From positions 480,001-512,000 of the forward strand of contig NZ_CP045921.1 of assembly GCF_025273655.1 (NCBI RefSeq): 32,000 bases of DNA, read 5' to 3'. The notes under the pieces are model-generated. The model had not been told where the DNA came from and did no database searches. It saw nothing but the letters and a program-made list of their open reading frames with translations. The translations under genes were made by a program, and so were the position numbers. Positions 1,197 through 15,366 of this stretch are shown piece by piece. Within the stretch, counting starts at the first letter, position 1; every line of letters starts with the position of its first letter. This DNA is from Candidatus Saccharimonadota bacterium (lineage in GTDB: Bacteria > Patescibacteriota > Saccharimonadia > Saccharimonadales > Saccharimonadaceae).

Positions 1197-1889
1197 TCAG
1201 CCGACGAGCTCGTAGTCTGCTCGAGTGGCGACACTAGCGCCATCGGGCACAGGTATGCCTAGAGCACGAGCTGCACTGAGGGCTGCGTCGATCAGAGATG
1301 GTGAGCCGCTGATGATGCCGACGACTTCGTCGTTAGCATCAATCACCGGCGAGCCGGAGTCGAATGGCGTGACAGCCATGCCCTTGATGACGATCCCGAA
1401 CTTGGTGATTGCAACGACGGTGCCGCACTGGCGGACCTTGTTGGCAATTCCGTGGCCGTGTTTGCACACAGTGGAACCGTGGCGCGGCTGTCCGACGCCT
1501 TTGACCGGCACCTCGTCGCGTACGATAACGTTCGGCGCCATCTGTACGGTGGCGATGTCGGCGTAATTGGCACTCACACCACTTCCGTCTGGGTAGGTAG
1601 TGCTGCGAATGACTGTGCCGACATACTGGCCGTTGGCATCGGTGATTCTGTCATTGACTTTGCCACAGTGACCTGCGAAATCAAAAGTCCTGCCACTGAC
1701 AGTGGCGACGTTGCAGCCGCCCCCGCCCTGGGGGATGACCTTGACACCGACGCCAATCACAGGTGCAGGTGCGGCACTTGCCTCGCCTGCACCGTGGGAA
1801 ATAGCGCCGATCAGTCCGACGAGAATTGCTGCGCCGATCAGTCCGACGAGCCACGCTCGAATACTTCTGGCACTGACAATGGGAATCAT
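1197..1889 (-). CDS. Secreted or membrane-anchored S1 family serine protease, streptogrisin/alpha-lytic (S1E)-like
   Basis: N-terminal hydrophobic signal/anchor ending ASA/AP. Triad contexts FAGHCG (His), YADIATV (Asp), TPFDSGSPV (Ser). Cys spacing GSTVCKHG...RQCGTVV resembles S1E. SD AAGGAGAAGTC-ATG. Hand GC counts are 62% and 67% on lines 1261 and 1681. Confidence 0.7.
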   Translation of the reverse strand: MIPIVSARSIRAWLVGLIGAAILVGLIGAISHGAGEASAAPAPVIGVGVKVIPQGGGGCNVATVSGRTFDFAGHCGKVNDRITDANGQYVGTVIRSTTYPDGSGVSANYADIATVQMAPNVIVRDEVPVKGVGQPRHGSTVCKHGHGIANKVRQCGTVVAITKFGIVIKGMAVTPFDSGSPVIDANDEVVGIISGSPSLIDAALSAARALGIPVPDGASVATRADYELVG

Positions 1890-2018: not shown

Positions 2019-3044
2019 CTATTTTTTTACTGGTATGTAAACAGTGAATGTGCTGCCCTGTTCCAGCGTGCTTTCGACGCTGAGTGTGCCATGGTGTGCC
2101 TTGACGAGTCGATGCGCAATAGGTAGTCCAAGGCCGTATCCTTGGGTTTGCGAGCGTGAAGCATCTGCTCGGTAGAAACGGGTGAAAATGTGTGACACGT
2201 CTTGCTCGGCGATGCCAACCCCTTGATCGGCAACGTGAATGTAGGTGCCACCTCTAGCATCATGGGCTGCAGTAAGTGTAATCGTAGTATCATCTGGACT
2301 GTATTTGATAGCGTTGTCGAGTAGGATGGTGATGATTTGCGTAAGTGCACCGTCGTCAGCGTGTAGCGTAATCGTAGGAATCAGATTGTCGACAGAGATG
2401 CGTTTGTCGACGGCTTTTGGCGCTACAGTGGCTAGGGCGGTATCGACCACCTCTGTAAGTTTGACATCCCCCAGTGTGAGTGTGGGCTGATGTGCTGACA
2501 AGCGCAAGAGTCCGTCAGTCAGTTGCTGCAGACGGGCGATTTCATCTAGATTATCCTGAATCGTTTCTCTGGCATCTGTGAGTGTCAGTTTTTTGCGGCG
2601 AAGCGCAACTTCATTGGTGGTGCGTAGGGCTGTCAGGGGTGTGCGAAGCTCGTGGCTTGCATCACTTACAAACTGAGTCTGGGCGTCCATGGCTTCCTCG
2701 ATAGGTTCGAGTGTGCGCCGCGCCAAGTAGTAGCTGAAAATACTGCCACCGGCTAGTACGAGCAGATTGATAACGGCGAGTTTAGCGAATATGTCACGCT
2801 TGCCTTCCTCGATGCGCTGATTGATGAACGAGCGAAAGCCCGATGGTGTTTGCATAGGAAAATCATCGGTTATACCAATAGCGCTACGCGGTGGTCGCTG
2901 ACGCTCCAGCTGGCTGGTAGATGTGGCGTAGAGTACGATACTGAAACTGAGACTCATGATCATGATGATGCTCAGGTACGTCAGCATCAAACGCGCCGTA
3001 TCGGTGCGTAGAAACGAGCGAAATTGGGTGAGCTCGTGGCTCAC
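2019..3044 (-). CDS. Sensor histidine kinase (HisKA + HATPase_c), two TM segments, no HAMP linker
   Basis: H-box SHELRTPL only ~15 aa after TM2. N/G boxes LLDNAIKYSP, DQGVGI, GYGLGL. 4-nt overlap with the upstream response regulator. Confidence 0.9.
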   Translation of the reverse strand: MSHELTQFRSFLRTDTARLMLTYLSIIMIMSLSFSIVLYATSTSQLERQRPPRSAIGITDDFPMQTPSGFRSFINQRIEEGKRDIFAKLAVINLLVLAGGSIFSYYLARRTLEPIEEAMDAQTQFVSDASHELRTPLTALRTTNEVALRRKKLTLTDARETIQDNLDEIARLQQLTDGLLRLSAHQPTLTLGDVKLTEVVDTALATVAPKAVDKRISVDNLIPTITLHADDGALTQIITILLDNAIKYSPDDTTITLTAAHDARGGTYIHVADQGVGIAEQDVSHIFTRFYRADASRSQTQGYGLGLPIAHRLVKAHHGTLSVESTLEQGSTFTVYIPVKK

Positions 3045-3718
3045 CCTTCATCCTTGATGATGTAGCCGAAGCCACGCATAGTCTCGATGAGATTGCGGCC
3101 TTTGTAGGGCTTGTCGACTTTGTTGCGGATGTAGTTGACAAATACTTCGACGTTGTTTGGTAAGATATCGGCGTCGAAATCCCAAACATGTGTCATGATG
3201 TTGGATTTGCTCACGACACGGTTCTTGTTGCGTAGCATGTACTCTAGGATCGAAAACTCTTTCGATGTGAGGGGTACTGTCTTGCCGGCGCGTTTGACTG
3301 AGCGATTGACAGTATCAAGTTCAAGATCTTCTACGGTAAGCACTTCTGCAAGCTTCTCATGAGGGCGCCGCAAGATAGCACGAACTCGAGCTAATAATAC
3401 TTCAAACGAGAATGGCTTGGCAACATAGTCGTCTGCGCCGCTGTCGAGACCTTTGATGATATCTTCTGTCTGGTCTTTGGCTGTGAGAAGGATGATTGGT
3501 GTATGATTGTCATCTGCGCGTAGCTGTTTACATACCTCGATGCCCGTTTTCTTGGGCATCATAACATCCATGAGGATAAGATCATATTCATCTGCACTGG
3601 CGGTATTGTAGCCAGCTTCCCCGTCGTACTCTACGTCGACAGCATAGCCTTCATCCATGAGGCCTTCGCGGATTGCACGAGCAATCCTGTGTTCGTCTTC
3701 TATCAGTAATATCTTCAT
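3041..3718 (-). CDS. OmpR-family response regulator
   Basis: Receiver motifs LLIEDE, LILMDVMMP, VAKPF. Winged-helix C-terminus LTSKEFSILEYM...RGFGY. Confidence 0.9.
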   Translation of the reverse strand: MKILLIEDEHRIARAIREGLMDEGYAVDVEYDGEAGYNTASADEYDLILMDVMMPKKTGIEVCKQLRADDNHTPIILLTAKDQTEDIIKGLDSGADDYVAKPFSFEVLLARVRAILRRPHEKLAEVLTVEDLELDTVNRSVKRAGKTVPLTSKEFSILEYMLRNKNRVVSKSNIMTHVWDFDADILPNNVEVFVNYIRNKVDKPYKGRNLIETMRGFGYIIKDEG

Positions 3719-3725
3719 AGTTCCT

Positions 3726-3752
3726 AGTATAGGACTTAAAACTGAGTCCTAT
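3726..3752 (-). promoter_or_regulatory. Candidate -10 box (TATACT, 7 nt from the regulator ATG) overlapped by an 8-bp inverted repeat (possible operator)
   Basis: Reverse complement of 3726-3731 is TATACT. Inverted repeat ataggact (3729-3736) / agtcctat (3745-3752). No good -35 box and no SD. Confidence 0.3.
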
Positions 3753-3777
3753 CTTAAAGCAATCCCTCAAGTATACC

Positions 3778-3805
3778 AAAAACTCTGCAGGTAGGCAGAG
3801 TTTTT
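3778..3805 (-). terminator. Rho-independent terminator after the ABC ATPase gene (A-tract/T-tract, potentially bidirectional)
   Basis: aaaaactctgc-aggtag-gcagagttttt is a perfect 11-bp stem, 16 nt after the ATPase stop codon. Confidence 0.7.
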
Positions 3806-3820
3806 GGTGAAACTTGGGCG

Positions 3821-4498
3821 CTATTTTTTGACTTCTTTGAGTTTGCCGTCACTTAGACGGAAAGTGCGGTCCGTCTTGCCGGCGATGTCGAGATCGTGTG
3901 TGACCACGATGATAGTGGTTTTCTCGGTCTTGGCCAGCGAATGCAAGAGGTCAAAGACCATTTTTCCGGTTTGCTCGTCCAGGTTGCCTGTCGGCTCGTC
4001 GGCCAAAATGACGCTCGGCTTATTGGCCAGCGCGCGGGCGATACTGACGCGCTGCTGCTGACCGCCAGAGAGCTTGCCGGGTTTGCGTTTCATCTGGTCT
4101 GGCTCGATACCTACCTGTGACAATAGCGCGGCAGCTTTGTCTTTGCGCTCAGCGGGTGCCACTCCGGCGAACTCCATGGGGAGCATGACGTTTTCGAGTG
4201 CAGTCAGGTTTGGTATCAGGTTGTAATTCTGGAACACGAAGCCGATTTTGTGGCAGCGATAGCGGATGAGGCTATGGTCGCTCATTTTGGCAATGTCTTG
4301 CTCGTCAACTTTGATGCTGCCACCAGTCGGCTTGTCAAGGGCGCCGAGCATGCTCAGAAGTGTGCTTTTGCCACTACCTGATTTACCGATGATGGAGACG
4401 AATTCGCCGCGGTCGACGCTAAATTTGAGGTCGTCGACGGCATGCACTTCTTCGCCACCAGATTTGAATGTGCGTGTGAGGTGTTCTACTACTAACAT
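3821..4498 (-). CDS. ABC transporter ATP-binding protein, MacB/LolD/FtsE-like
   Basis: Walker A GKSGSGKST, signature LSGGQQQRVSIARAL, Walker B ILADEPTGNLD, H-loop VTHD. SD AGGAGG upstream. Confidence 0.9.
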   Translation of the reverse strand: MLVVEHLTRTFKSGGEEVHAVDDLKFSVDRGEFVSIIGKSGSGKSTLLSMLGALDKPTGGSIKVDEQDIAKMSDHSLIRYRCHKIGFVFQNYNLIPNLTALENVMLPMEFAGVAPAERKDKAAALLSQVGIEPDQMKRKPGKLSGGQQQRVSIARALANKPSVILADEPTGNLDEQTGKMVFDLLHSLAKTEKTTIIVVTHDLDIAGKTDRTFRLSDGKLKEVKK

Positions 4499-4505
4499 AT
4501 GCCTC

Positions 4506-5885
4506 CTACTCTGCCCGCATCACTTCTGCTGGGCGTACTTTTGATATGAAGATCGACGCGAGTGCACTGCCGATGATGGCGATGATCAGCGCCGCACCGA
4601 TGCCGTAGAGGATGATCTCCCAACCAACAGTGGCAGTGATATTTTCTGCACTTTGCTGGAGAGCTCGTCCGGCGCCACGACCTGGGCCGCTCATCATGCC
4701 GCCAGCCTGCGTAGTTGTGCTAGAGCTTGATACGAGTGCGCTAGTGATAGGCGCTGCAGCTGCGACGCCGATACCAATACCGATAATAGCGCCGAGGAGT
4801 GTCAGTGTGATCGCTTCAGCAATAAACTGACCCATGATGATTACATTGCTACCGCCGATGGCTTTGATGACGCCGATTTCTCGGCGGCGTTCGCGGACGA
4901 TCATGATCATAGTGAGTAAGATGATGATCGCGCCGGCAAAGACTGCCCCAATGAGGCTATAGAGCGAGATGGTCTGAATATTTTCGAGCGGTGCGACAGC
5001 AGACTCGACGGTGCTGGCAGAATCGGTCACATCACCACTATCGCCCATCACCTTCTTTGCTGCGGTGCTGACACTCGAGATGTTATCGACGCTGTCGACA
5101 TTGAGTGTGATACTCGTGAGTTCGTCGACTTGGTCGCTGAGTGTTTGGACGACGGCGAGCGGCATGATTACTTGGTTGTTGGTAAACTGCGTGCCGGTGT
5201 CGTAGATGCCCACGACTTTGAACTCAGTGCCATATGCCGTAAAGGTTGAGCCGACTGCCAAGCTGTTTTTGTCAGCGATCGCTTTGCCGATGATGGCGAC
5301 GTGCTCGGTGGAGTCTGCTGCAAAGCTTGTGCCAGAAGTGAGTTTGAATGTTACGCCGTCCGATGCGAGCGCCTTCTCTGGATTGTTGCTGCCTACAACA
5401 GTGACGGGCGGTGTAAAGGTGCGGGTGACGGTGCCCTGGGAGCTGCTTGAGCTTGACTCACCCTGCCTGCCTTCTCCATTCTGCATTTGTGGCGGCGCTT
5501 GCTGGAACCCGACCCCGGAACGTTCTGAATTACGCTGTCCGAGTGAGCCAGCATCGATGCCAGATTTAAGCGTGGTGTTGTCGGTCGTTAAGCGATCACT
5601 GACTGTCTGGATGGTGCTTGAGACATGATCGATAGCAGTTAGTTTGGCGGCTTGGTCTTTGGTGAGTGGTTCGCCGCCACCTTCGAAACCACGGGCACCC
5701 GCTGGTGCGACGCTGACTGTGTTGCCGACCGATGATTTGATAGTGTCTATTTTGGCTGTGACTGCCTGGCGAGCGACGAGCATGGCAAGAGCCAGTCCGA
5801 TGCTGATGCCGAGGATGATCACGATGGATCCTGTGCGTATGATGTTGCGAAAAGCATTACGTGCCCCCCGGGATATCATATTCAT
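4506..5885 (-). CDS. ABC transporter permease, FtsX/MacB type, with a large extracytoplasmic domain
   Basis: Start moved to the ATG at 5885 (SD AAGGAGAAGTAT-ATG); the track start at 5957 has no SD. TM1, then a ~290-aa external domain with an SSSSSS run, then a C-terminal FtsX helix bundle ending KVRPAEVMRAE. Confidence 0.85.
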   Translation of the reverse strand: MNMISRGARNAFRNIIRTGSIVIILGISIGLALAMLVARQAVTAKIDTIKSSVGNTVSVAPAGARGFEGGGEPLTKDQAAKLTAIDHVSSTIQTVSDRLTTDNTTLKSGIDAGSLGQRNSERSGVGFQQAPPQMQNGEGRQGESSSSSSQGTVTRTFTPPVTVVGSNNPEKALASDGVTFKLTSGTSFAADSTEHVAIIGKAIADKNSLAVGSTFTAYGTEFKVVGIYDTGTQFTNNQVIMPLAVVQTLSDQVDELTSITLNVDSVDNISSVSTAAKKVMGDSGDVTDSASTVESAVAPLENIQTISLYSLIGAVFAGAIIILLTMIMIVRERRREIGVIKAIGGSNVIIMGQFIAEAITLTLLGAIIGIGIGVAAAAPITSALVSSSSTTTQAGGMMSGPGRGAGRALQQSAENITATVGWEIILYGIGAALIIAIIGSALASIFISKVRPAEVMRAE

Positions 5886-5994: not shown

Positions 5995-6023
5995 TTGCTT
6001 TTTTATTATTTTTATGTTATAAT
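5995..6023 (+). promoter_or_regulatory. Sigma-70-type promoter for the PE-PPE hydrolase gene (TTGCTT-17-TATAAT, TG-extended)
   Basis: ttgctt ttttattatttttatgt tataat read directly. It would give a ~125-nt 5' UTR. Confidence 0.55.
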
Positions 6024-6156
6024 GCATTTGTCTCGGAAAGTATACAATGTTGTGTAACAAGTACGGGTGTAATCCACTGGTCAACGATGATCAGTTAACA
6101 ATCAGAGTACAACAGAATACAACCCACCCTCACTCTTTAGAAAGCAGGTGATTCAG

Positions 6157-7440
6157 ATGTTTCGTGTTTTCGTGCGCGCTATCGCGCTCGTCACACTGGC
6201 ACTGGGGCTTGTGCTTGGCGGTTCCTCAATCGCTCAGGCAGCCCCGGTCGAGTTCGACTCGTCTTCCATCTATGCCTACGGTGGTACTGGTAACCCCAGT
6301 GCCGCTGGCATGAAGGATTCGGCAGCAGGACGCGTCGCACAGGGCGTCAGCCCTGACGTGCCGGTTTCCGAGATGTACGCTGTGAATGAGTTTCGGTTCG
6401 ATACGGGGCTCTTCGACAAGACCTACTCGGACAGTCGCAATGAAACGGCGGCGAGTATGGTGCAAACTGTCGAGGCAGCGCCGACCCTGGCGAAGAAGAC
6501 CTTGGTGGTTTATAGCCAGACCGGTGACGCCGCGCGTATCGCTGCGCGGGCACTTGTGGCGAAGGGTTTTCCTGCCGATCAATTACTGATTGTCGCTCAG
6601 GGAGACCCGGGCCGACAGGGTTCGACCAAGGGCATCGCCCAGGTACTCCGCGCGTTCAAGATTCCGGTACTCGGCGTTGATTTCGACGAGGATCAGAGCA
6701 CCAGCGGCGTCAAGGTCGTGTCGATCTGCAAGGTCGGCGTGAACGCGGATCCGATCTGCGACATGCCGAGCGACCTCGATCCGATCAAGGGAGCAAACCG
6801 GCTGGCAGGTTTTTTCACGGCGCACGGCAGCTACGGACCCGACCTCAATATGTCGAATGCGACTATTTCGGTGTACGGCAATGAGATCGACGTAGATGTC
6901 CCGACGGACACCCCATCGCTCGTTCTTCTGGCTCGCGGTGCCGGTATTGGTGTGCCCCAGGAGCTGTCTGACGCATTGTCGGATTATCTCTTGACGGACC
7001 ACAGTTTCCCGAAGCTCGAAGAGATCTTCCACGGTGATTTCCTCCCGGAACTCGCCGAGGGTCTGCTTCAGCCCAAGAAGCCCGCGCCGTTGCCTGTGCC
7101 GCAGGTCCCCACCAGCCCGGAGGAGATCCCGGCTGTCGTCGGTGACTTCGCCGGTCAGACCACAGTCTATGTGGCCGAAAATGCAGGTGCAGCTATCGGG
7201 AGTGCCGCTGGTGGTGCTGTTGGATCGAATTTCGGTCCGGCAGGAACCACCCTTGGCACTCAGCTGGGTGAGCGTGTCGGCCAGGCAGTTGGCCGTGAAG
7301 TGGGCGAAGCTGCTGCGCCTGTCGTGGCGGATATCGCCGCTGGTGTGGTGGAGTCGGTGCAAACCGGTAACCCGCAGCCAGCCGTGGATGCCATCAACCG
7401 GGCACTGCCTGCCGGCGTGCCCCCAATCCACCTGCCGTAG
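6157..7440 (+). CDS. Secreted PE-PPE-domain-like serine hydrolase (alpha/beta fold) with a Pro-rich spacer and a Gly/Ala-rich C-terminal tail
   Basis: Start set to the ATG at 6157 (SD AGGTG, 6-nt spacer). Signal peptide ...GGSSIAQA/AP. Blocks GGTGNP, LVVYSQTGDAA, FFTAHGSYG. Hand GC counts are 58-68% on three lines. Confidence 0.6.
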   Translation: MFRVFVRAIALVTLALGLVLGGSSIAQAAPVEFDSSSIYAYGGTGNPSAAGMKDSAAGRVAQGVSPDVPVSEMYAVNEFRFDTGLFDKTYSDSRNETAASMVQTVEAAPTLAKKTLVVYSQTGDAARIAARALVAKGFPADQLLIVAQGDPGRQGSTKGIAQVLRAFKIPVLGVDFDEDQSTSGVKVVSICKVGVNADPICDMPSDLDPIKGANRLAGFFTAHGSYGPDLNMSNATISVYGNEIDVDVPTDTPSLVLLARGAGIGVPQELSDALSDYLLTDHSFPKLEEIFHGDFLPELAEGLLQPKKPAPLPVPQVPTSPEEIPAVVGDFAGQTTVYVAENAGAAIGSAAGGAVGSNFGPAGTTLGTQLGERVGQAVGREVGEAAAPVVADIAAGVVESVQTGNPQPAVDAINRALPAGVPPIHLP

Positions 7441-7476
7441 GAGCGGCTGGTATTCTGTCCTTACTACCCTGGTTGC

Positions 7477-7518
7477 AAGCCCGGATCTTCGTGTGTCATC
7501 ACGATAGATCCGGGCTTC
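7477..7518 (+). terminator. GC-rich hairpin downstream of the hydrolase gene
   Basis: aagcccggatc (7477-7487) / gatccgggctt (7508-7518), 20-nt loop, followed by caactcatttt. Confidence 0.45.
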
Positions 7519-7545
7519 AACTCATTTTGGGGGCTTTGGACTACA

Positions 7546-7583
7546 CTAAAAAAGAAGGTATGCGTACATACCTTCTTTTTTCT
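7546..7583. terminator. Bidirectional Rho-independent terminator
   Basis: aaaaaagaaggtatg-cgta-cataccttctttttt. The core stem is a perfect 11 bp, flanked by an A-run and a T-run. Confidence 0.75.
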
Positions 7584-7604
7584 TGGCTGGGGTGGAGGGA
7601 TTCG
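7575..7604 (-). repeat. Displaced copy of the tRNA-Gln 3' end (T-loop to CCA) plus 9 nt of 3' flank; att-like direct repeat
   Basis: cttttttcTtggctggggtggagggattcg (7575-7604) versus cttttttcAtggctggggtggagggattcg (7765-7794): 29 of 30 identical, 190 bp apart. Confidence 0.8.
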
Positions 7605-7764
7605 GTCACGTCTCGCGACCCCGCGAGTTCACGATTGACGATACATCGTCATCGGAACGTCGCTCTCAAACTGCCACTGGCAGTTTTCGCCCCCTCATGC
7701 CACTCAGGGCTTCGAATCACTATCTCTAGACAAAGAAAAAAGTCCTAGACCTGAAGGCCTACGA
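7605..7764 (-). other. 160-bp segment bracketed by the att-like repeats; three perfect short hairpins, no ORF
   Basis: Hairpins ctcgcg-accc-cgcgag (7612-7627), tgacgat-ac-atcgtca (7636-7651), aaactgcca-c-tggcagttt (7668-7686). An imperfect hairpin with a T-run (7736-7771) follows the tRNA 3' end. Confidence 0.5.
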
Positions 7765-7773
7765 CTTTTTTCA

Positions 7774-7848
7774 TGGCTGGGGTGGAGGGATTCGAACCCC
7801 CGAATGCCGGAACCAAAATCCGGTGCCTTACCACTTGGCGACACCCCA
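7774..7848 (-). tRNA. tRNA-Gln (anticodon UUG), CCA encoded
   Basis: The reverse complement TGGGGTGTCGCCAAGTGGTAAGGCACCGGATTTTGGTTCCGGCATTCGGGGGTTCGAATCCCTCCACCCCAGCCA folds as a cloverleaf. The 7-bp acceptor stem is perfect, the anticodon loop is TTTTGGT, and the sequence closely resembles E. coli tRNA-Gln. Confidence 0.95.
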
Positions 7849-11660: not shown

Positions 11661-12689
11661 CTACAACGCACGTGTCTGCGACAGAGGTATTCGAACCGTG
11701 AACGTGGTAAAAACGCCCGGCTGACTGCTCGCGGTGAGCTCACCATGGTGGAGCTCTACAATTTTCTTTGCCAGTGGCAGCCCAAGACCATAACTGGCGT
11801 TTTCTTCTAACGTTCGTGATGAGCTAGCTCGATAAAATCTCGTAAAAATATGCGGGAGTTTGTCTGGAGCGATGCCAACTCCGATATTTGTGACGCTGAG
11901 CTCCACGCTTCGAACACGGCGTTTAAGCGAGACAGTTACGCGAGTGTCTGAAGGGCTGTATTTGAGGGCATTGTCGAGCAGCACGACTGCCAGTTCGGTA
12001 ATACTGGTAGGATTTGCTTCTATGTCAGGAAGTTTTTTGACAGCTTCTACATCAATGCGATCGGCCCGTTCTCCGAGTGAACGAATAGCAGTGTCGACTG
12101 TTTCGGTAATATTGAACTTACGCCACTCAAGCTCGCTGTACTCAAGCCGGGCGAGCTTGAGCAACGTTGAAGATAGCTCGCTCAGTCGATCAACTTCCTC
12201 TAGGTTACTCTCGAGAATTTCGCGGTAATCTTGTTTGGTTGCGCCACTATCAGATAAGATGACTTCGAGCTCTGTTTTCATGACGGCAAGTGGTGTTTTG
12301 AGCTCATGGCTTGCGTCACTGGTGAACTTGGTCTGAGCCTCGTGAGCGGCCTCAATCGGTCGGAGGGTACGCTTGGCGAGAATGTAGGACGCGACACTTG
12401 CGATAGCAAGCACGGCAAGATTAGCATATAGGAGCATGCCTACAATATTATGTTCGGCTTCTGCAATTTGACGGTCACGTACTGTTTCAAAATTGAAGTC
12501 AGATTGGGCGAGTACGGTGGTACTTTGCGCCAACCGGGCTTCTATGACTTCAAACCTGGCGTAGAGCTCACCGCTTGCAAAATTGTAGACGAGCACGCTA
12601 AATACGAGACAGACCAGCATGATACCGGCCAAATACCAGATGGTAAGTTTGAGTGTGGCTGATTGAAACATTTTTGGAATGTTTTGCAT
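11661..12689 (-). CDS. Sensor histidine kinase (paralog of 2019-3044), two TM segments, no HAMP
   Basis: H-box SHELKTPL close to TM2. LLDNALKYSP, NIGVGI, SYGLGL. Same architecture and length as the first kinase. Confidence 0.9.
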   Translation of the reverse strand: MQNIPKMFQSATLKLTIWYLAGIMLVCLVFSVLVYNFASGELYARFEVIEARLAQSTTVLAQSDFNFETVRDRQIAEAEHNIVGMLLYANLAVLAIASVASYILAKRTLRPIEAAHEAQTKFTSDASHELKTPLAVMKTELEVILSDSGATKQDYREILESNLEEVDRLSELSSTLLKLARLEYSELEWRKFNITETVDTAIRSLGERADRIDVEAVKKLPDIEANPTSITELAVVLLDNALKYSPSDTRVTVSLKRRVRSVELSVTNIGVGIAPDKLPHIFTRFYRASSSRTLEENASYGLGLPLAKKIVELHHGELTASSQPGVFTTFTVRIPLSQTRAL

Positions 12690-12692
12690 GGA

Positions 12693-13370
12693 CTAGTGTG
12701 CCTCAAATTTGTAGCCGACACCGCGGACGGTTTTGATGTAGTGTACCTTGAACCTGTTATCTATTTTGCCGCGCAGATATTTGATATAGACTTCAACCGT
12801 ATTTGGCAAAATATCTGCATCAAAATCCCAGACGTGGCTGATGATTTGCTCCTTGGAAACCGGACGACCCTCCGATCGCATAAGGTATTCGAGTAGTGCT
12901 TGTTCTTTGACAGTAAGATCGAGTAATTCCCCATCGTAGCTTGTCTCGTGTAGCGTGGTATTGAGGGAGAGCTTGCCTGCGCGCAGCACAGTATCTTGAT
13001 GAATCGTCGGTCGGCGGAGTAGTGCGCGCACACGGGCGAGTAGCTCGTCGACGGAAAAAGGTTTCGTGAGGTAGTCGTCCGCCCCGGCGTCCAGTCCTTC
13101 TGTTTTCTGCTCGGTACTACCAAGCGCCGTGAGGATGAGCGCAGGTGCATCTATATCTTCCTCTCGGAGTTTGCGAAGTAGTGCAACACCATCTGCATAC
13201 TCACCCGGCAGTAACCTGTCAACGATCATGATATCGTATGGCTCGGTACTCGCCATAGCATAACCACCGTCACTGTCATGCTCGACATCGACAGCATAGC
13301 CTTGTCCTCGCAGTGCTCTGGCAAGCGCATTGGCGATTTTGACTTCGTCTTCGATCACCAGGATGCGCAC
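12693..13370 (-). CDS. OmpR-family response regulator (paralog of 3041-3718)
   Basis: Receiver plus winged helix, also 225 aa. Shares the identical stretch HVWDFDADILPN with the first regulator. GTG start. Confidence 0.9.
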   Translation of the reverse strand: MRILVIEDEVKIANALARALRGQGYAVDVEHDSDGGYAMASTEPYDIMIVDRLLPGEYADGVALLRKLREEDIDAPALILTALGSTEQKTEGLDAGADDYLTKPFSVDELLARVRALLRRPTIHQDTVLRAGKLSLNTTLHETSYDGELLDLTVKEQALLEYLMRSEGRPVSKEQIISHVWDFDADILPNTVEVYIKYLRGKIDNRFKVHYIKTVRGVGYKFEAH

Positions 13371-13372
13371 AG

Positions 13373-14608
13373 CTATGCTCGTTTTTTGAGGCTTAGAGTT
13401 TTAAGTGACAGTCTCCCGTCGTACTGCATGGCGCCGTAGCGAAACAGGCGCACCGCAAGCAGGATGATGACAGTGCCAAGCACCATGAGCATGCTGATCA
13501 CAATAGCGGCGTCAACTAGGCCGAGGGAACCAAATGCGTTGCGAAGTAAGGCTGTAACTGGTGCGGTGTATGGGAAGAATGTGAAGACTTGTACCACAAG
13601 TGCGCTCGGGTCGCTGAGGATGAGCATGATGATATAAAACGGTATGAACATGAGGAGGATGGCAATGCCAAAGTATTGGCCTGCTTCTTTGGCTGTTGGC
13701 ATGACAGCACCAACAGCTACAAGTGTACCGGTGAACAACATGAGTCCTCCGATCATAATGAGTGCACCTATCACCATGGCAGTTGGATCGACAACAAGCT
13801 GTGAGATCATGTTCGCGTTTGGAAGATTGACAACTTCCGAGCCAAGTACAAAGTATGCAATGACTGCTGGCGTAATCATTACGGCCGCCTGCACGATACC
13901 TGCCAGAAATGTCGCAAGAAGCTTGCCTACGATAAGAATGGTTGGATTAAGCGTGGTGAGAATCATCTCAGTAACGCGATTTTCTTTTTCTTCGACAGTA
14001 CTATTGAGAAGGTTGTTGCCAAGCATGGCAATTGTAAAATAGAAAAAGAGGAGGAAGAGCAATGGTGGAATGGCTGCAAGCCAGCCGGCAGAGACTTCCC
14101 CATCTTTTTTATAGGTGGTGGTGTCACTCGAGACAGATCCCTGTGTTACGGCTATTAATCTCGGATTTGCAATTGTCGCAGCAGCACTTGTCTTCAGCAT
14201 CTGTTCGGCGACAGCAGAGTATTTGCCATTATTGAACAGTCCCGCGTCTTTGCCGTAGACTTCTACCTGTGCCTTGTCGAGGTTGGCGGGATAGTAGAAA
14301 AATGCGTCAACCTTGCCTGTTTTGACCTCCTCGATCGCAGTCGCTTTGTCGGTGACTGGCTGGGCGTCAAGTTTGTCAGCTACTACTGGTAATACGACGC
14401 TCGAGTCGTCTTTGTATTCGATACTAAACTTCTCCTGGGCAAGTTTTTCACTACTGTCGCTTGAGGTCTTGCTACTGTAATAGACGATACCGATGATAAC
14501 GGCGAACATGAGTGGAAATGCGAGTGTGGCAATCCAAAACGAAGGCTTTTTGACAGTACGCCAAAACTCAAAACTAATAACTGTGCCGAGATTATGTCGA
14601 GATGCCAT
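13373..14608 (-). CDS. ABC-2 type transporter permease, NatB-like topology
   Basis: TM1, a ~130-aa external domain, then 5 C-terminal TM helices. Separated by 2 nt from each neighbouring gene. Confidence 0.75.
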   Translation of the reverse strand: MASRHNLGTVISFEFWRTVKKPSFWIATLAFPLMFAVIIGIVYYSSKTSSDSSEKLAQEKFSIEYKDDSSVVLPVVADKLDAQPVTDKATAIEEVKTGKVDAFFYYPANLDKAQVEVYGKDAGLFNNGKYSAVAEQMLKTSAAATIANPRLIAVTQGSVSSDTTTYKKDGEVSAGWLAAIPPLLFLLFFYFTIAMLGNNLLNSTVEEKENRVTEMILTTLNPTILIVGKLLATFLAGIVQAAVMITPAVIAYFVLGSEVVNLPNANMISQLVVDPTAMVIGALIMIGGLMLFTGTLVAVGAVMPTAKEAGQYFGIAILLMFIPFYIIMLILSDPSALVVQVFTFFPYTAPVTALLRNAFGSLGLVDAAIVISMLMVLGTVIILLAVRLFRYGAMQYDGRLSLKTLSLKKRA

Positions 14609-14610
14609 AT

Positions 14611-15366
14611 CTATTTCTCCTCCCCTTCACTTGCGGCGTCTTCGCCGTACACATGAAGAAATACGTCATCCATGGTTTTCTTTTTGAACTGCTCTAGTAC
14701 TTCGGGCACTGTACCATATGCCGCCTGAGTGCCATCTTTGAGTAAGATTAATCGGTCGCACAGTCGCTCTACCTCGCTCATGTCATGAGTAATGAGGATG
14801 ATAGTCGCACCCTTGGCACGCTGAGCTTCGATAATATCCATAAGTAAACGGCGATTGACTGGGTCGAAGCCTTTGGTTGGCTCGTCGAGAATGAGTACGT
14901 CCGGGTCGTTCATAATCGTCACGCCTAGCTGGACCTTTTGCTGTTGTCCACCAGAAAGTTTATCGACTTTTACTCTTGCTTTGTCTTCGAGCTTGACACG
15001 CTTTAAGTAGTCGAGTGACCACTGTTTTGCTTCTTGTTTAGCGAGGCCTTTGAGCTGACCAAAGTAGGTCATGACATCGAGAACTGACTCTTTTTTGTAG
15101 AGGCCGCGTTCTTCTGGCAGGTAGCCGAGCATACGGCCATCTTCTGGCTCAAATGTCTTGCCGTTGATAGTGAGTGAACCGCTGGTGGGCTGATAGATAC
15201 CAAGGAGCGCACGCATCGTTGTCGTCTTGCCGCTACCATTGCTACCGAGGAAGCCAAACGTTTCGCCCTTTCGAACTTCAAATGATAAGTCGTCGATGAC
15301 TGTTTTGTCGCCAAATTTCATACTAAATTGGTCGACGGTGATGACGGGCGCTGCTGATTTGATCAC
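14611..15366 (-). CDS. ABC transporter ATP-binding protein (ABC-2/NatA/CcmA-like)
   Basis: Walker A GSNGSGKTT, signature LSGGQQQKVQL, Walker B LILDEPTKGFD. SD AAGGAGG 5 nt before the GTG start. Confidence 0.9.
   Translation of the reverse strand: MIKSAAPVITVDQFSMKFGDKTVIDDLSFEVRKGETFGFLGSNGSGKTTTMRALLGIYQPTSGSLTINGKTFEPEDGRMLGYLPEERGLYKKESVLDVMTYFGQLKGLAKQEAKQWSLDYLKRVKLEDKARVKVDKLSGGQQQKVQLGVTIMNDPDVLILDEPTKGFDPVNRRLLMDIIEAQRAKGATIILITHDMSEVERLCDRLILLKDGTQAAYGTVPEVLEQFKKKTMDDVFLHVYGEDAASEGEEK

Follow-up and report, generated by a model that had tools for sequence, protein, structure and literature searches.

The region analyzed here is a stretch of 32,000 nucleotides of a Saccharibacterial genome (contig NZ_CP045921.1, positions 480,001–512,000), hereafter called the window. 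The gene under study occupies positions 6157–7440 on the plus strand and encodes a cutinase-like/PE-PPE-type serine hydrolase, predicted to be secreted, with a glycine-zipper tail; this assignment is based on Pfam, identity to an NCBI entry, a structure model, a family profile, and the ratio of nonsynonymous to synonymous substitution rates (dN/dS). NCBI lists a protein of Candidatus Mycosynbacter amalyticus with 100% identity to the 427-residue product, under the name “PE-PPE domain-containing protein”. The open reading frame as listed begins at a GTG (6148–7440, plus strand), and the ATG at 6157 is preceded by the Shine–Dalgarno sequence AGGTGAT at 6146–6152. The frame 6157–7440 is a genuine gene. 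An antisense frame of 282 residues (6583–7431, minus strand) lies within it and was treated as an artefact of the GC-rich coding sequence; conservation and dN/dS favor the plus-strand frame. The gene is divergent from a cassette encoding MacB, an ATP-binding cassette (ABC) protein, a response regulator, and a histidine kinase, and lies on the side of tRNA-Gln, a P-type ATPase, and GreA.

Ca. M. amalyticus, a Saccharibacterium available in culture, attaches to Gordonia amarae and lyses it; mycolic acid of the host is required, and attachment depends on it (PMC11880426). A first-pass annotation of this DNA had placed it in just such a setting, a Saccharibacterium living on mycolic-acid Actinobacteria. 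It is reported to infect 27 mycolata species (PMC12592800, citing Batinovic 2021). The parasite encodes arabinogalactan-degrading enzymes, which are the only envelope enzymes of this organism studied so far (PMC10115798), and a literature search returned no mention of the present gene or of any Saccharibacterial PE-PPE or cutinase-like enzyme. The domain annotation is already known from NCBI, and so is the kind of enzyme. What is new is the phylum in which it occurs, the combination of a Sec signal with a glycine-zipper architecture, a slot in which two types of the gene stand behind a single promoter, and a maintained excess of GC at third codon positions (GC3).

The protein consists of four segments. 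Residues 1–28 (6157–6240) form a Sec signal peptide, read by inspection, with two Arg residues, a hydrophobic core, and A-Q-A followed by AP; the segment has no Cys and hence no lipobox, and an equivalent N-terminal hydrophobic segment is present in all homologues. The catalytic α/β-hydrolase domain, delimited by alignment and model, spans residues 29–288 (6241–7020). It is followed by a Pro-rich linker, KKPAPLPVPQVPTSPEE, at residues 307–323 (7075–7125) and by a C-terminal two-helix glycine-zipper hairpin at residues 321–403 (7117–7365), which is defined by the model and the Gly positions. The blocks quoted in the first-pass annotation were found at residues 25–30 (IAQA/AP), 42–47 (GGTGNP, containing G43-T44), 116–126 (LVVYSQTGDAA), and 219–227 (FFTAHGSYG); its Sec signal, Pro-rich spacer, and Gly/Ala-rich tail were likewise where it had placed them.

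The candidate nucleophile is Ser120 (6514–6516), within V-Y-S-Q-T-G. Asp198 (6748–6750) lies between Cys191 and Cys201 (C191...D198-P-I-C201), and His223 (6823–6825) has Tyr226 nearby. In an alignment of 14 sequences, Ser120, His223, and Tyr226 are invariant, position 198 is always Asp or Glu, and Cys191 and Cys201 are invariant or nearly so; the two Cys residues could form a disulfide. Ser120, Asp198, His223, and both Cys residues are kept in all type A copies (the types are described below), and the triad is kept in protein P0002. As read from the alignment, a putative Ser120–Asp198–His223 triad is thus present. In Fusarium cutinase, a Cys pair brackets the catalytic Asp in the same manner (C171-D175-C178). 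The AlphaFold2 model has a mean predicted local distance difference test (pLDDT) score of 71, with values of 80–93 over most of the hydrolase domain. Around Ser120, it places a strand (114–119) before the Ser and a helix (122–135) after it, i.e., the topology of a nucleophile elbow, which had been anticipated from the sequence blocks.

The linker is modeled with low confidence: pLDDT falls below 50 for residues 282–307, and the block 301–310 averages 43. In the Gly/Ala-rich tail, Gly recurs at every fourth residue in 344–360 and 363–383, and the model shows helices at 321–359 and 361–403 with a break at GPAG (pLDDT of 50–76 per 10-residue block). The tail gave weak matches to Pfam Gly-zipper_Omp (E = 0.036), to an uncharacterized PHROG (E = 1.6e-6), and to tape-measure PHROGs (about 1e-3). 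Because homologous tails are present in type B proteins and in P0004, the tail is part of the family architecture. It may serve in anchoring or membrane insertion.

The family assignment was examined with profiles, sequence searches, and fold comparisons. The window protein matches PF08237 over residues 85–234 with 23.2 bits against a cut-off of 21 (E = 5.4e-5), and 7 of 10 relatives scanned match the same profile with 31–64 bits. No match of the window protein to the Pfam Cutinase family PF01083 was obtained at E ≤ 10; among the relatives, P0014, a Prescottella protein, matches PF01083 with 49.6 bits, and P0003 reaches 17.8 bits, under the cut-off. NCBIfam yielded nothing useful for the window protein, and a phmmer search of the Protein Data Bank (PDB) with the single sequence returned only noise (best, an inorganic pyrophosphatase at E = 0.36). 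An 11-member family profile reached Rv3802c (5w95_A) at E = 3.5e-21 and MSMEG_6394 (3aja_A) at E = 4.1e-18, with fungal cutinase-like enzymes at about 1e-7, and did not reach the D29 LysB structure (3HC7) at E ≤ 10. The GFSQGAV and ICaqGDLICaAP segments of Rv3802c align to the Ser and C..D..C blocks of the window protein. The same two structures, 5w95 and 3aja, are the best PDB matches of the model in Foldseek, and all Foldseek matches are α/β hydrolases.

The best viral fold matches (BFVD) all belong to phages of Mycobacterium, Gordonia, and Rhodococcus and are labeled “hydrolase”, “PE-PPE domain-containing protein”, “serine hydrolase”, or “Lysin B”; they include a hydrolase of Mycobacterium phage Chris (1e-8), a PE-PPE protein of Gordonia phage Avazak (1e-6), and the Lysin B of Gordonia phage GMA6 (2.5e-3). 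With relatives as queries against 50,697 phage records, 13 of the 14 tblastn matches listed were to phages of mycolic-acid bacteria; the window protein itself gave no tblastn match in phages or plasmids. It matched phrog_102, labeled “endolysin”, at E = 1.2e-3, and relatives did so at 1e-8 to 1e-10 (P0003, 1e-10), a label for which identity with the LysB family could not be confirmed. Collectively, the gene is that of an exported-type, conserved, constrained serine hydrolase of the cutinase/PE-PPE/LysB kind, and, judged by sequence comparison, its placement in the cutinase-like/PE-PPE family is solid through the relatives, though the match of the window protein to PF08237 is marginal. The first-pass annotation gave PE-PPE domains as largely restricted to Mycobacteriales, and the superfamily is otherwise centered on that order and its phages (searches here; PMC3037379); an ultimate origin in the world of Mycobacteriales and their phages is therefore plausible.

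Among solved structures, Rv3802c (Culp6) of M. tuberculosis and MSMEG_6394 of M. smegmatis (PDB 5W95 and 3AJA) are the closest by fold and profile. Their xYSQx nucleophile and C-x-x-G-D-x-I-C blocks align to those of the window protein, and both are extracytoplasmic enzymes of the mycolate envelope. However, the identity in the structural alignment is only 17–19%. Rv3802c is, moreover, a mycolate bacterium’s own enzyme, a phospholipase/thioesterase encoded in a mycolic-acid gene cluster (PMC2625445), whereas the window protein has a Pro-rich linker and a glycine-zipper tail and lacks a PF01083 match. The PF08237 match is shared with Chp1 (Rv3822) and Chp2 (Rv1184c), PE-PPE proteins without PE or PPE N-termini, and with the esterase PE16 (Rv1430). 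These have a Ser/Asp/His triad, the Tyr and Gln of the pentapeptide, and a signal peptide or membrane anchor that puts the domain outside the cytoplasm, where acyl-trehalose lipids or esters of the outer envelope are the substrates (PMC3037379, PMC3318749, PMC4183827, PMC3562317). The window protein differs from them in its marginal and partial match, its VYSQT pentapeptide, its extra tail, and its phylum, and it has neither a PE or PPE domain nor a type VII secretion context; the Cys pair conserved in its family is not found in the two mycobacterial PE-PPE proteins aligned.

Lysin B, a mycolylarabinogalactan esterase, and the serine hydrolases of actinobacteriophages provide the best viral fold matches and the weak phrog_102 matches, and, like the window protein, they are encoded by agents that lyse mycolata. 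Yet the window gene stands outside any lysis cassette, next to the MacB/ABC/two-component cassette, tRNA-Gln, and the P-type ATPase, and its product carries a Sec signal for export, whereas lysin B is released through a holin. A DUF4185 endo-D-arabinanase and a GH172 arabinofuranosidase of M. amalyticus likewise belong to families common to Mycobacteriales, their phages, and the parasite; a role in opening the Gordonia wall, or in feeding on it, has been proposed for them (PMC10115798). They are glycoside hydrolases rather than esterases, and their genes lie elsewhere in the genome.

An exhaustive phmmer search of 1.84 billion representative proteins (threshold E ≤ 1e-3) returned 14 matches to the window protein: one metagenomic homologue with 77% identity, followed by proteins with 37–38% identity. 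The best named actinobacterial matches, PE-PPE proteins of Mycobacterium, Mycolicibacterium, and Prescottella, had E-values of 1.5e-6 to 2.4e-4 and about 30–38% identity over part of the protein only; no close actinobacterial homologue was found among these representatives. The nearest relatives that could be placed are Saccharibacteria or contigs with low-GC flanks. Other Saccharibacteria were surveyed at the level of the locus neighborhood, and homologues were found in the slot of the window gene in L001/L002, L004/L005, L172, and L171. In L006, the first 153 nt of the contig are homologous to the start of macB and to the shared promoter, and the far end of the contig reaches the 3′ end of tRNA-Gln. 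The flanking proteins are 72–96% identical to those of the window. The esterases in this slot fall into two types, A and B, which are only about 25% identical to each other but homologous over their full length, including the tail. Type A comprises the window protein, L008 (76% identical), and L171 (79%, with an in-frame stop); type B comprises L001, L004, L006, and L172.

The two types are distributed patchily relative to MacB identity with the window: L001 (93%) carries type B, L009 (80%) has no esterase, L004 and L172 (73–75%) carry type B, L171 (72%) carries type A, and L010 (71%) again has no esterase. In the type A copy of L171 (1237–1998), codon 161 is an in-frame TAG where the window has CAG, and homology is lost past about residue 210; this copy is either a pseudogene or a chimera of the assembly. 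At L089, B-like and A-like genes stand in tandem. In a rough neighbor-joining tree, type A groups with the 350-residue protein of L089 (87% bootstrap), and type B forms a separate clade (100%). The pattern is most simply read as a pair of old paralogues that were differentially lost, or exchanged between members of the clade. Two or three paralogues are present in a second lineage, L090/L173, whose GlgB is 62–67% identical to that of the window clade. No family member was found within 10 kb of MacB in 80 GTDB loci (about 30 Saccharibacteria or other Patescibacteria) and 78 metagenomic loci; the GTDB scan used a three-sequence MacB alignment, since the MacB protein alone gave nothing.

Several observations on these neighborhoods stand apart. 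At L089, three GC-rich genes (57–59% GC) lie beside flanking genes of 42–46% GC, and because of these flanks L089 is not from Mycobacteriales. In both L089 (205–4404) and L091 (489–4576), a gene for a 397–406-residue HExxH protein is divergent beside the tandem pair of PE-PPE-like genes; the flanking genes of L089 and L091 gave no match in the fetched loci. For the MacB cassette (window 2019–5882, minus strand; L036–L088), the nearest sequences from outside the Patescibacteria in the GTDB scan are those of Arthrobacter, Paenarthrobacter, and Pseudarthrobacter at 35–40% identity, which hints at an old exchange with Micrococcales. A second histidine-kinase/response-regulator pair (11661–15366, minus strand), 37–47% identical to the first, lies beside an ABC-2 type transporter; given this paralogous pair and the transporter, the window holds two sensor-plus-exporter modules.

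Substitution rates point to a functional gene of long residence. Within types, dN/dS of the esterase is 0.14–0.18 (0.18 for the window against the type A gene of L008), compared with 0.03–0.09 for the flanking genes. Between the window and L171, the proportion of synonymous differences (pS) is 0.57 for the type A gene and 0.67 for macB, near saturation. On the basis of these values, the gene is functional, has evolved a few-fold faster than its neighbors, and has been in the clade for about as long as the lineages have been split.

The composition of the gene is distinctive. Its GC content is 61.2%, against 51.3% for the rest of the window (z = 3.6 relative to 32 other open reading frames), and its GC3 is 0.671 against 0.558 (standard deviation 0.053; z = 2.1), i.e., at the top of the window range and not outside it. 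Codon usage differs mostly in that G-ending codons replace A-ending ones. The excess in GC and GC3 is found in every homologue, with flanking genes of 42–57% GC: GC3 is 0.72 in L001 (flanks about 0.63), 0.76 in L004 (about 0.51), 0.70 in L006 (about 0.44), 0.56–0.60 in L089 (0.37–0.46), and 0.75 in L090 (about 0.55). Because synonymous sites have largely turned over since the lineages split, the GC3 excess is not a leftover of a donor; something maintains it. Biased gene conversion at a recombining locus is one candidate. Translational selection was also considered and is unsupported, as the sole ribosomal-protein gene in the window (L10) has a GC3 of 0.54. In the window, the gene next in GC content (59.7%) encodes a 230-residue, weakly trypsin-like protein (1197–1889, minus strand), and its homologue in L004 (4883–5587) is a GC3 outlier as well (0.71, compared with about 0.51); the protein may be another secreted hydrolase that shows this compositional excess.

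The promoter of the esterase gene consists of TTGCTT (5995–6000), a 17-nt spacer, and an extended −10 element, TGtTATAAT (6015–6023), all on the plus strand. A consensus scanner made no call, since the −35 hexamer has 3/6 matches, but the block is conserved in the window, L008, L001, L004, and L006, i.e., across both types, but not in L009, where the cassette is present without the esterase gene. DNA homology of the window to L001, L004, and L006 ends at 6026, three bases past the −10 element, and restarts only at tRNA-Gln. The 5′ leader of about 130 nt (6024–6156, plus strand) contains the Shine–Dalgarno sequence. A regulatory RNA in this leader was considered and rejected, with no Rfam match, a fold no more stable than that of shuffles (z = 0.19), and no conserved structure across loci. 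A small leader hairpin in the window (6075–6095, CTGGTCA-acga-TGATCAG) recurs in L008 at about 178–196 (CCGGTCA-acga-TGATCGG) with both sides of one pair changed; it is not in type B leaders, and the sequences are too few to judge it.

A GC-rich hairpin found by folding (7477–7519, plus strand) lies 37 nt past the stop codon without an adjacent U-run. Its folding energy is −42.9 kcal/mol in a 100-nt context (7441–7540), with z = −4.3 and none of 200 shuffles as good. A terminator scan made no call at this hairpin, which may be terminator-like or a stabilizer. Further downstream, a partial copy of the tRNA-Gln 3′ end with 9 nt of downstream sequence (7575–7604, unstranded) is identical at 29/30 positions to 7765–7794; no such 30-nt direct repeat is expected by chance. 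Its first copy starts 135 nt past the esterase stop, and the two copies do not enclose the esterase gene. The repeat unit consists of the 9 nt downstream of tRNA-Gln and 21 nt of the tRNA 3′ end, and a separate hairpin, perfect or nearly so, precedes each copy (7548–7581 and 7735–7772). The arrangement looks like an att scar or a duplicated terminator–tRNA end; the 160 nt between the copies gave no match. The promoter, the hairpin, and the tRNA-Gln duplication had all been reported in the first-pass annotation and are real, and its hand counts of GC content on five lines of sequence (58.3, 68.3, 60.0, 46.7, and 53.3%) were exact.

The tRNA-Gln gene (anticodon TTG; 7774–7848, minus strand; tRNA and Rfam assignment) is the far edge of a variable region that begins with the esterase gene, and it also borders this region in L001, L002, L006, and L009. 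The distance from esterase to tRNA-Gln is 0.33 kb in the window (stop to tRNA), 3.3 kb in L001, about 9 kb in L006, and 5.3 kb in L009. Because this stretch varies among relatives, the esterase gene sits at the fixed edge of a tRNA-adjacent variable region. The inserts differ in content: a 104-residue membrane protein, an Abhydrolase_9 protein (512 residues), and a trypsin-like protease in L001 (9486–12523); a major facilitator superfamily protein, a DUF4385 protein, and an 854-residue Big_1/SpaA-like protein in L006 (1542–10377); and, in L009 (4657–9805), a 602-residue sigma-like protein and a 591-residue Abhydrolase_9-like protein with no esterase.

We favor, with a probability of roughly 55%, the reading that the gene encodes a Sec-exported cutinase-like/PE-PPE esterase of an old family of the Mycosynbacter lineage whose targets are ester lipids of the host envelope. 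Several points weigh against it. The PF08237 score is only 2 bits over threshold and covers profile positions 21–177 of 228, and the Foldseek TM-scores are modest (0.48 normalized to the target, for Rv3802c and MSMEG_6394 alike). The second tail helix is polar and charged, which makes membrane insertion uncertain. The deep nodes of the gene tree are not resolved, and the proposed transfer from Mycobacteriales is based on taxonomic distribution and not on a supported phylogeny. Finally, the type A elbow (window protein, P0002, and P0027) reads V-Y-S-Q-T, which is not the pentapeptide GxSxG/S that defines the PE-PPE domain at the nucleophile (PMC3037379). Two residues of the pentapeptide, Tyr in second and Gln in fourth place, still fit the PF08237 family.

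The altered elbow raises the question of whether type A proteins have become catalytically weakened, lipid- or mycolate-binding adhesins that keep the hydrolase fold, the elbow having lost its canonical small residues; the dependence of parasite attachment on host mycolic acid (PMC11880426) would suit such a role. We consider this improbable. The catalytic residues and both Cys residues persist in all type A copies and across the family, dN/dS remains at 0.15–0.18, relatives that retain the triad have any of several residues (V/A/G/T/S/D) two positions ahead of the Ser, and the type B elbow is canonical (GYSQG or GYSLG). A different question is what an active enzyme would act upon. It might be a lipid-harvesting or self-envelope enzyme, i.e., an Rv3802c-like phospholipase/thioesterase or a Chp1/Chp2-like acyltransferase that frees or transfers host fatty acids for a parasite unable to make lipids, or that remodels the parasite’s own surface. 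The nearest solved structures are Rv3802c and MSMEG_6394, of which the former is a phospholipase/thioesterase (PMC2625445), Chp1 and Chp2, which consist of the PE-PPE domain only, act as acyltransferases on lipids of trehalose (PMC3318749, PMC4183827), and the glycine-zipper tail could tether the enzyme to the parasite itself. The data do not separate hydrolysis from transfer, or host from self target; however, the viral fold matches point to lysis-type esterases, and restriction of the gene to a clade of known attackers of mycolata fits a host target, though it fits lipid harvesting equally. This remains a tentative alternative, less probable than host-envelope hydrolysis.

The other two alternatives concern how the gene came to the locus. 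The first-pass annotation had taken it as a capture from a mycolate host that its GC content still betrays, which in its recent form means insertion at tRNA-Gln from a Gordonia-like lineage with the donor composition still unameliorated. A 61% GC gene in a 51% GC window, the move from A-ending to G-ending codons, the PF08237 match, the nearby partial duplication of tRNA-Gln, and the host being a mycolate actinobacterium (PMC11880426) speak for such a capture. But among 1.84 billion representatives the best named actinobacterial matches reach only 1.5e-6 to 2.4e-4, the window protein has no tblastn matches in plasmids or phages, and several related Saccharibacteria have homologues in this slot, with the promoter conserved. 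Type A is also present in L171, with MacB at 72% identity and synonymous differences near saturation, the 30-nt repeat does not flank the gene, and the GC3 excess is found in every homologue, so that GC fails as a donor signature. Capture from the present host lineage in recent times is largely refuted and very improbable, and only the plausibility of an ultimate origin there survives of the earlier proposal. Indeed, the closest homologues are largely Patescibacterial with the same composition, and the GC3 value is borderline with respect to the background distribution.

Alternatively, types A and B could have been captured independently from different GC-rich donors into one hotspot, with recurrent import keeping GC high. 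This would account for an identity of about 25% between types next to flanking proteins at 74–96%, for the conflict between the gene tree (L001 with L004, window apart) and flank similarity (window with L001), for the position in a tRNA-adjacent variable island, and for the persistent GC3 excess. It is nevertheless unlikely: the types share the promoter, full-length architecture, and a homologous glycine-zipper tail; the tandem of both types at L089 allows old paralogy with differential loss to explain the pattern; the phmmer search found no donor-like actinobacterial sequences; and type A is about as old as the split between the window and L171.

The favored reading of an old, exported esterase can be set out as follows. 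The protein would combine the Ser120–Asp198–His223 triad with Cys191 and Cys201 on either side of the Asp, an arrangement known from cutinases, and a Pro-rich linker would connect this domain to the two glycine-zipper helices of the tail. It would belong to a small, old family of the Mycosynbacter lineage with at least two deeply diverged types, A (that of the window) and B, both preceded by a single conserved promoter and located where the variable region that tRNA-Gln borders has its edge nearest to MacB. The family probably descends from an ancient transfer from mycolic-acid Actinobacteria or their phages and would since then have been inherited, or exchanged, inside the parasite clade. We infer that the protein most likely functions as an esterase on ester-linked lipids of the host mycolate envelope. 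In this mechanism, the exported enzyme would be held by its tail in a lipid layer, either the parasite surface or the host mycomembrane. The catalytic domain would then cut ester lipids of the host envelope, i.e., trehalose mycolates, mycolyl-arabinogalactan, or phospholipid. As a result, the mycomembrane would be opened as by phage lysin B, exposing arabinogalactan to the arabinanases of the parasite, and/or lipids would be freed for uptake.

A bolder version of this proposal, which we regard as possible but doubtful, holds that the Mycosynbacter clade has its own lysin-B-like mycomembrane esterases, with the zipper inserting into the outer lipid layer of the host. The two ancient allelic types at one slot would then help to set which mycolic-acid hosts can be opened, and the family-wide GC3 excess, retained in spite of saturated divergence, would come from frequent recombination at the locus (biased gene conversion) and not from foreign origin.

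M. amalyticus is one of the few cultured Patescibacteria and lyses foam-forming Gordonia of wastewater plants. As this case cautions, high GC in a gene of a reduced genome of intermediate GC content need not mean that the gene was imported recently. The esterase is no surprise in an organism whose attack on mycolata is known, but it is a good experimental candidate, of practical interest for foam control and as a source of enzymes against the mycobacterial envelope. A secreted esterase with a fold that mycobacteria and phages use on mycolate lipids offers a concrete, clonable candidate for mycomembrane passage, and the two old types at one locus provide a testable handle on host range.

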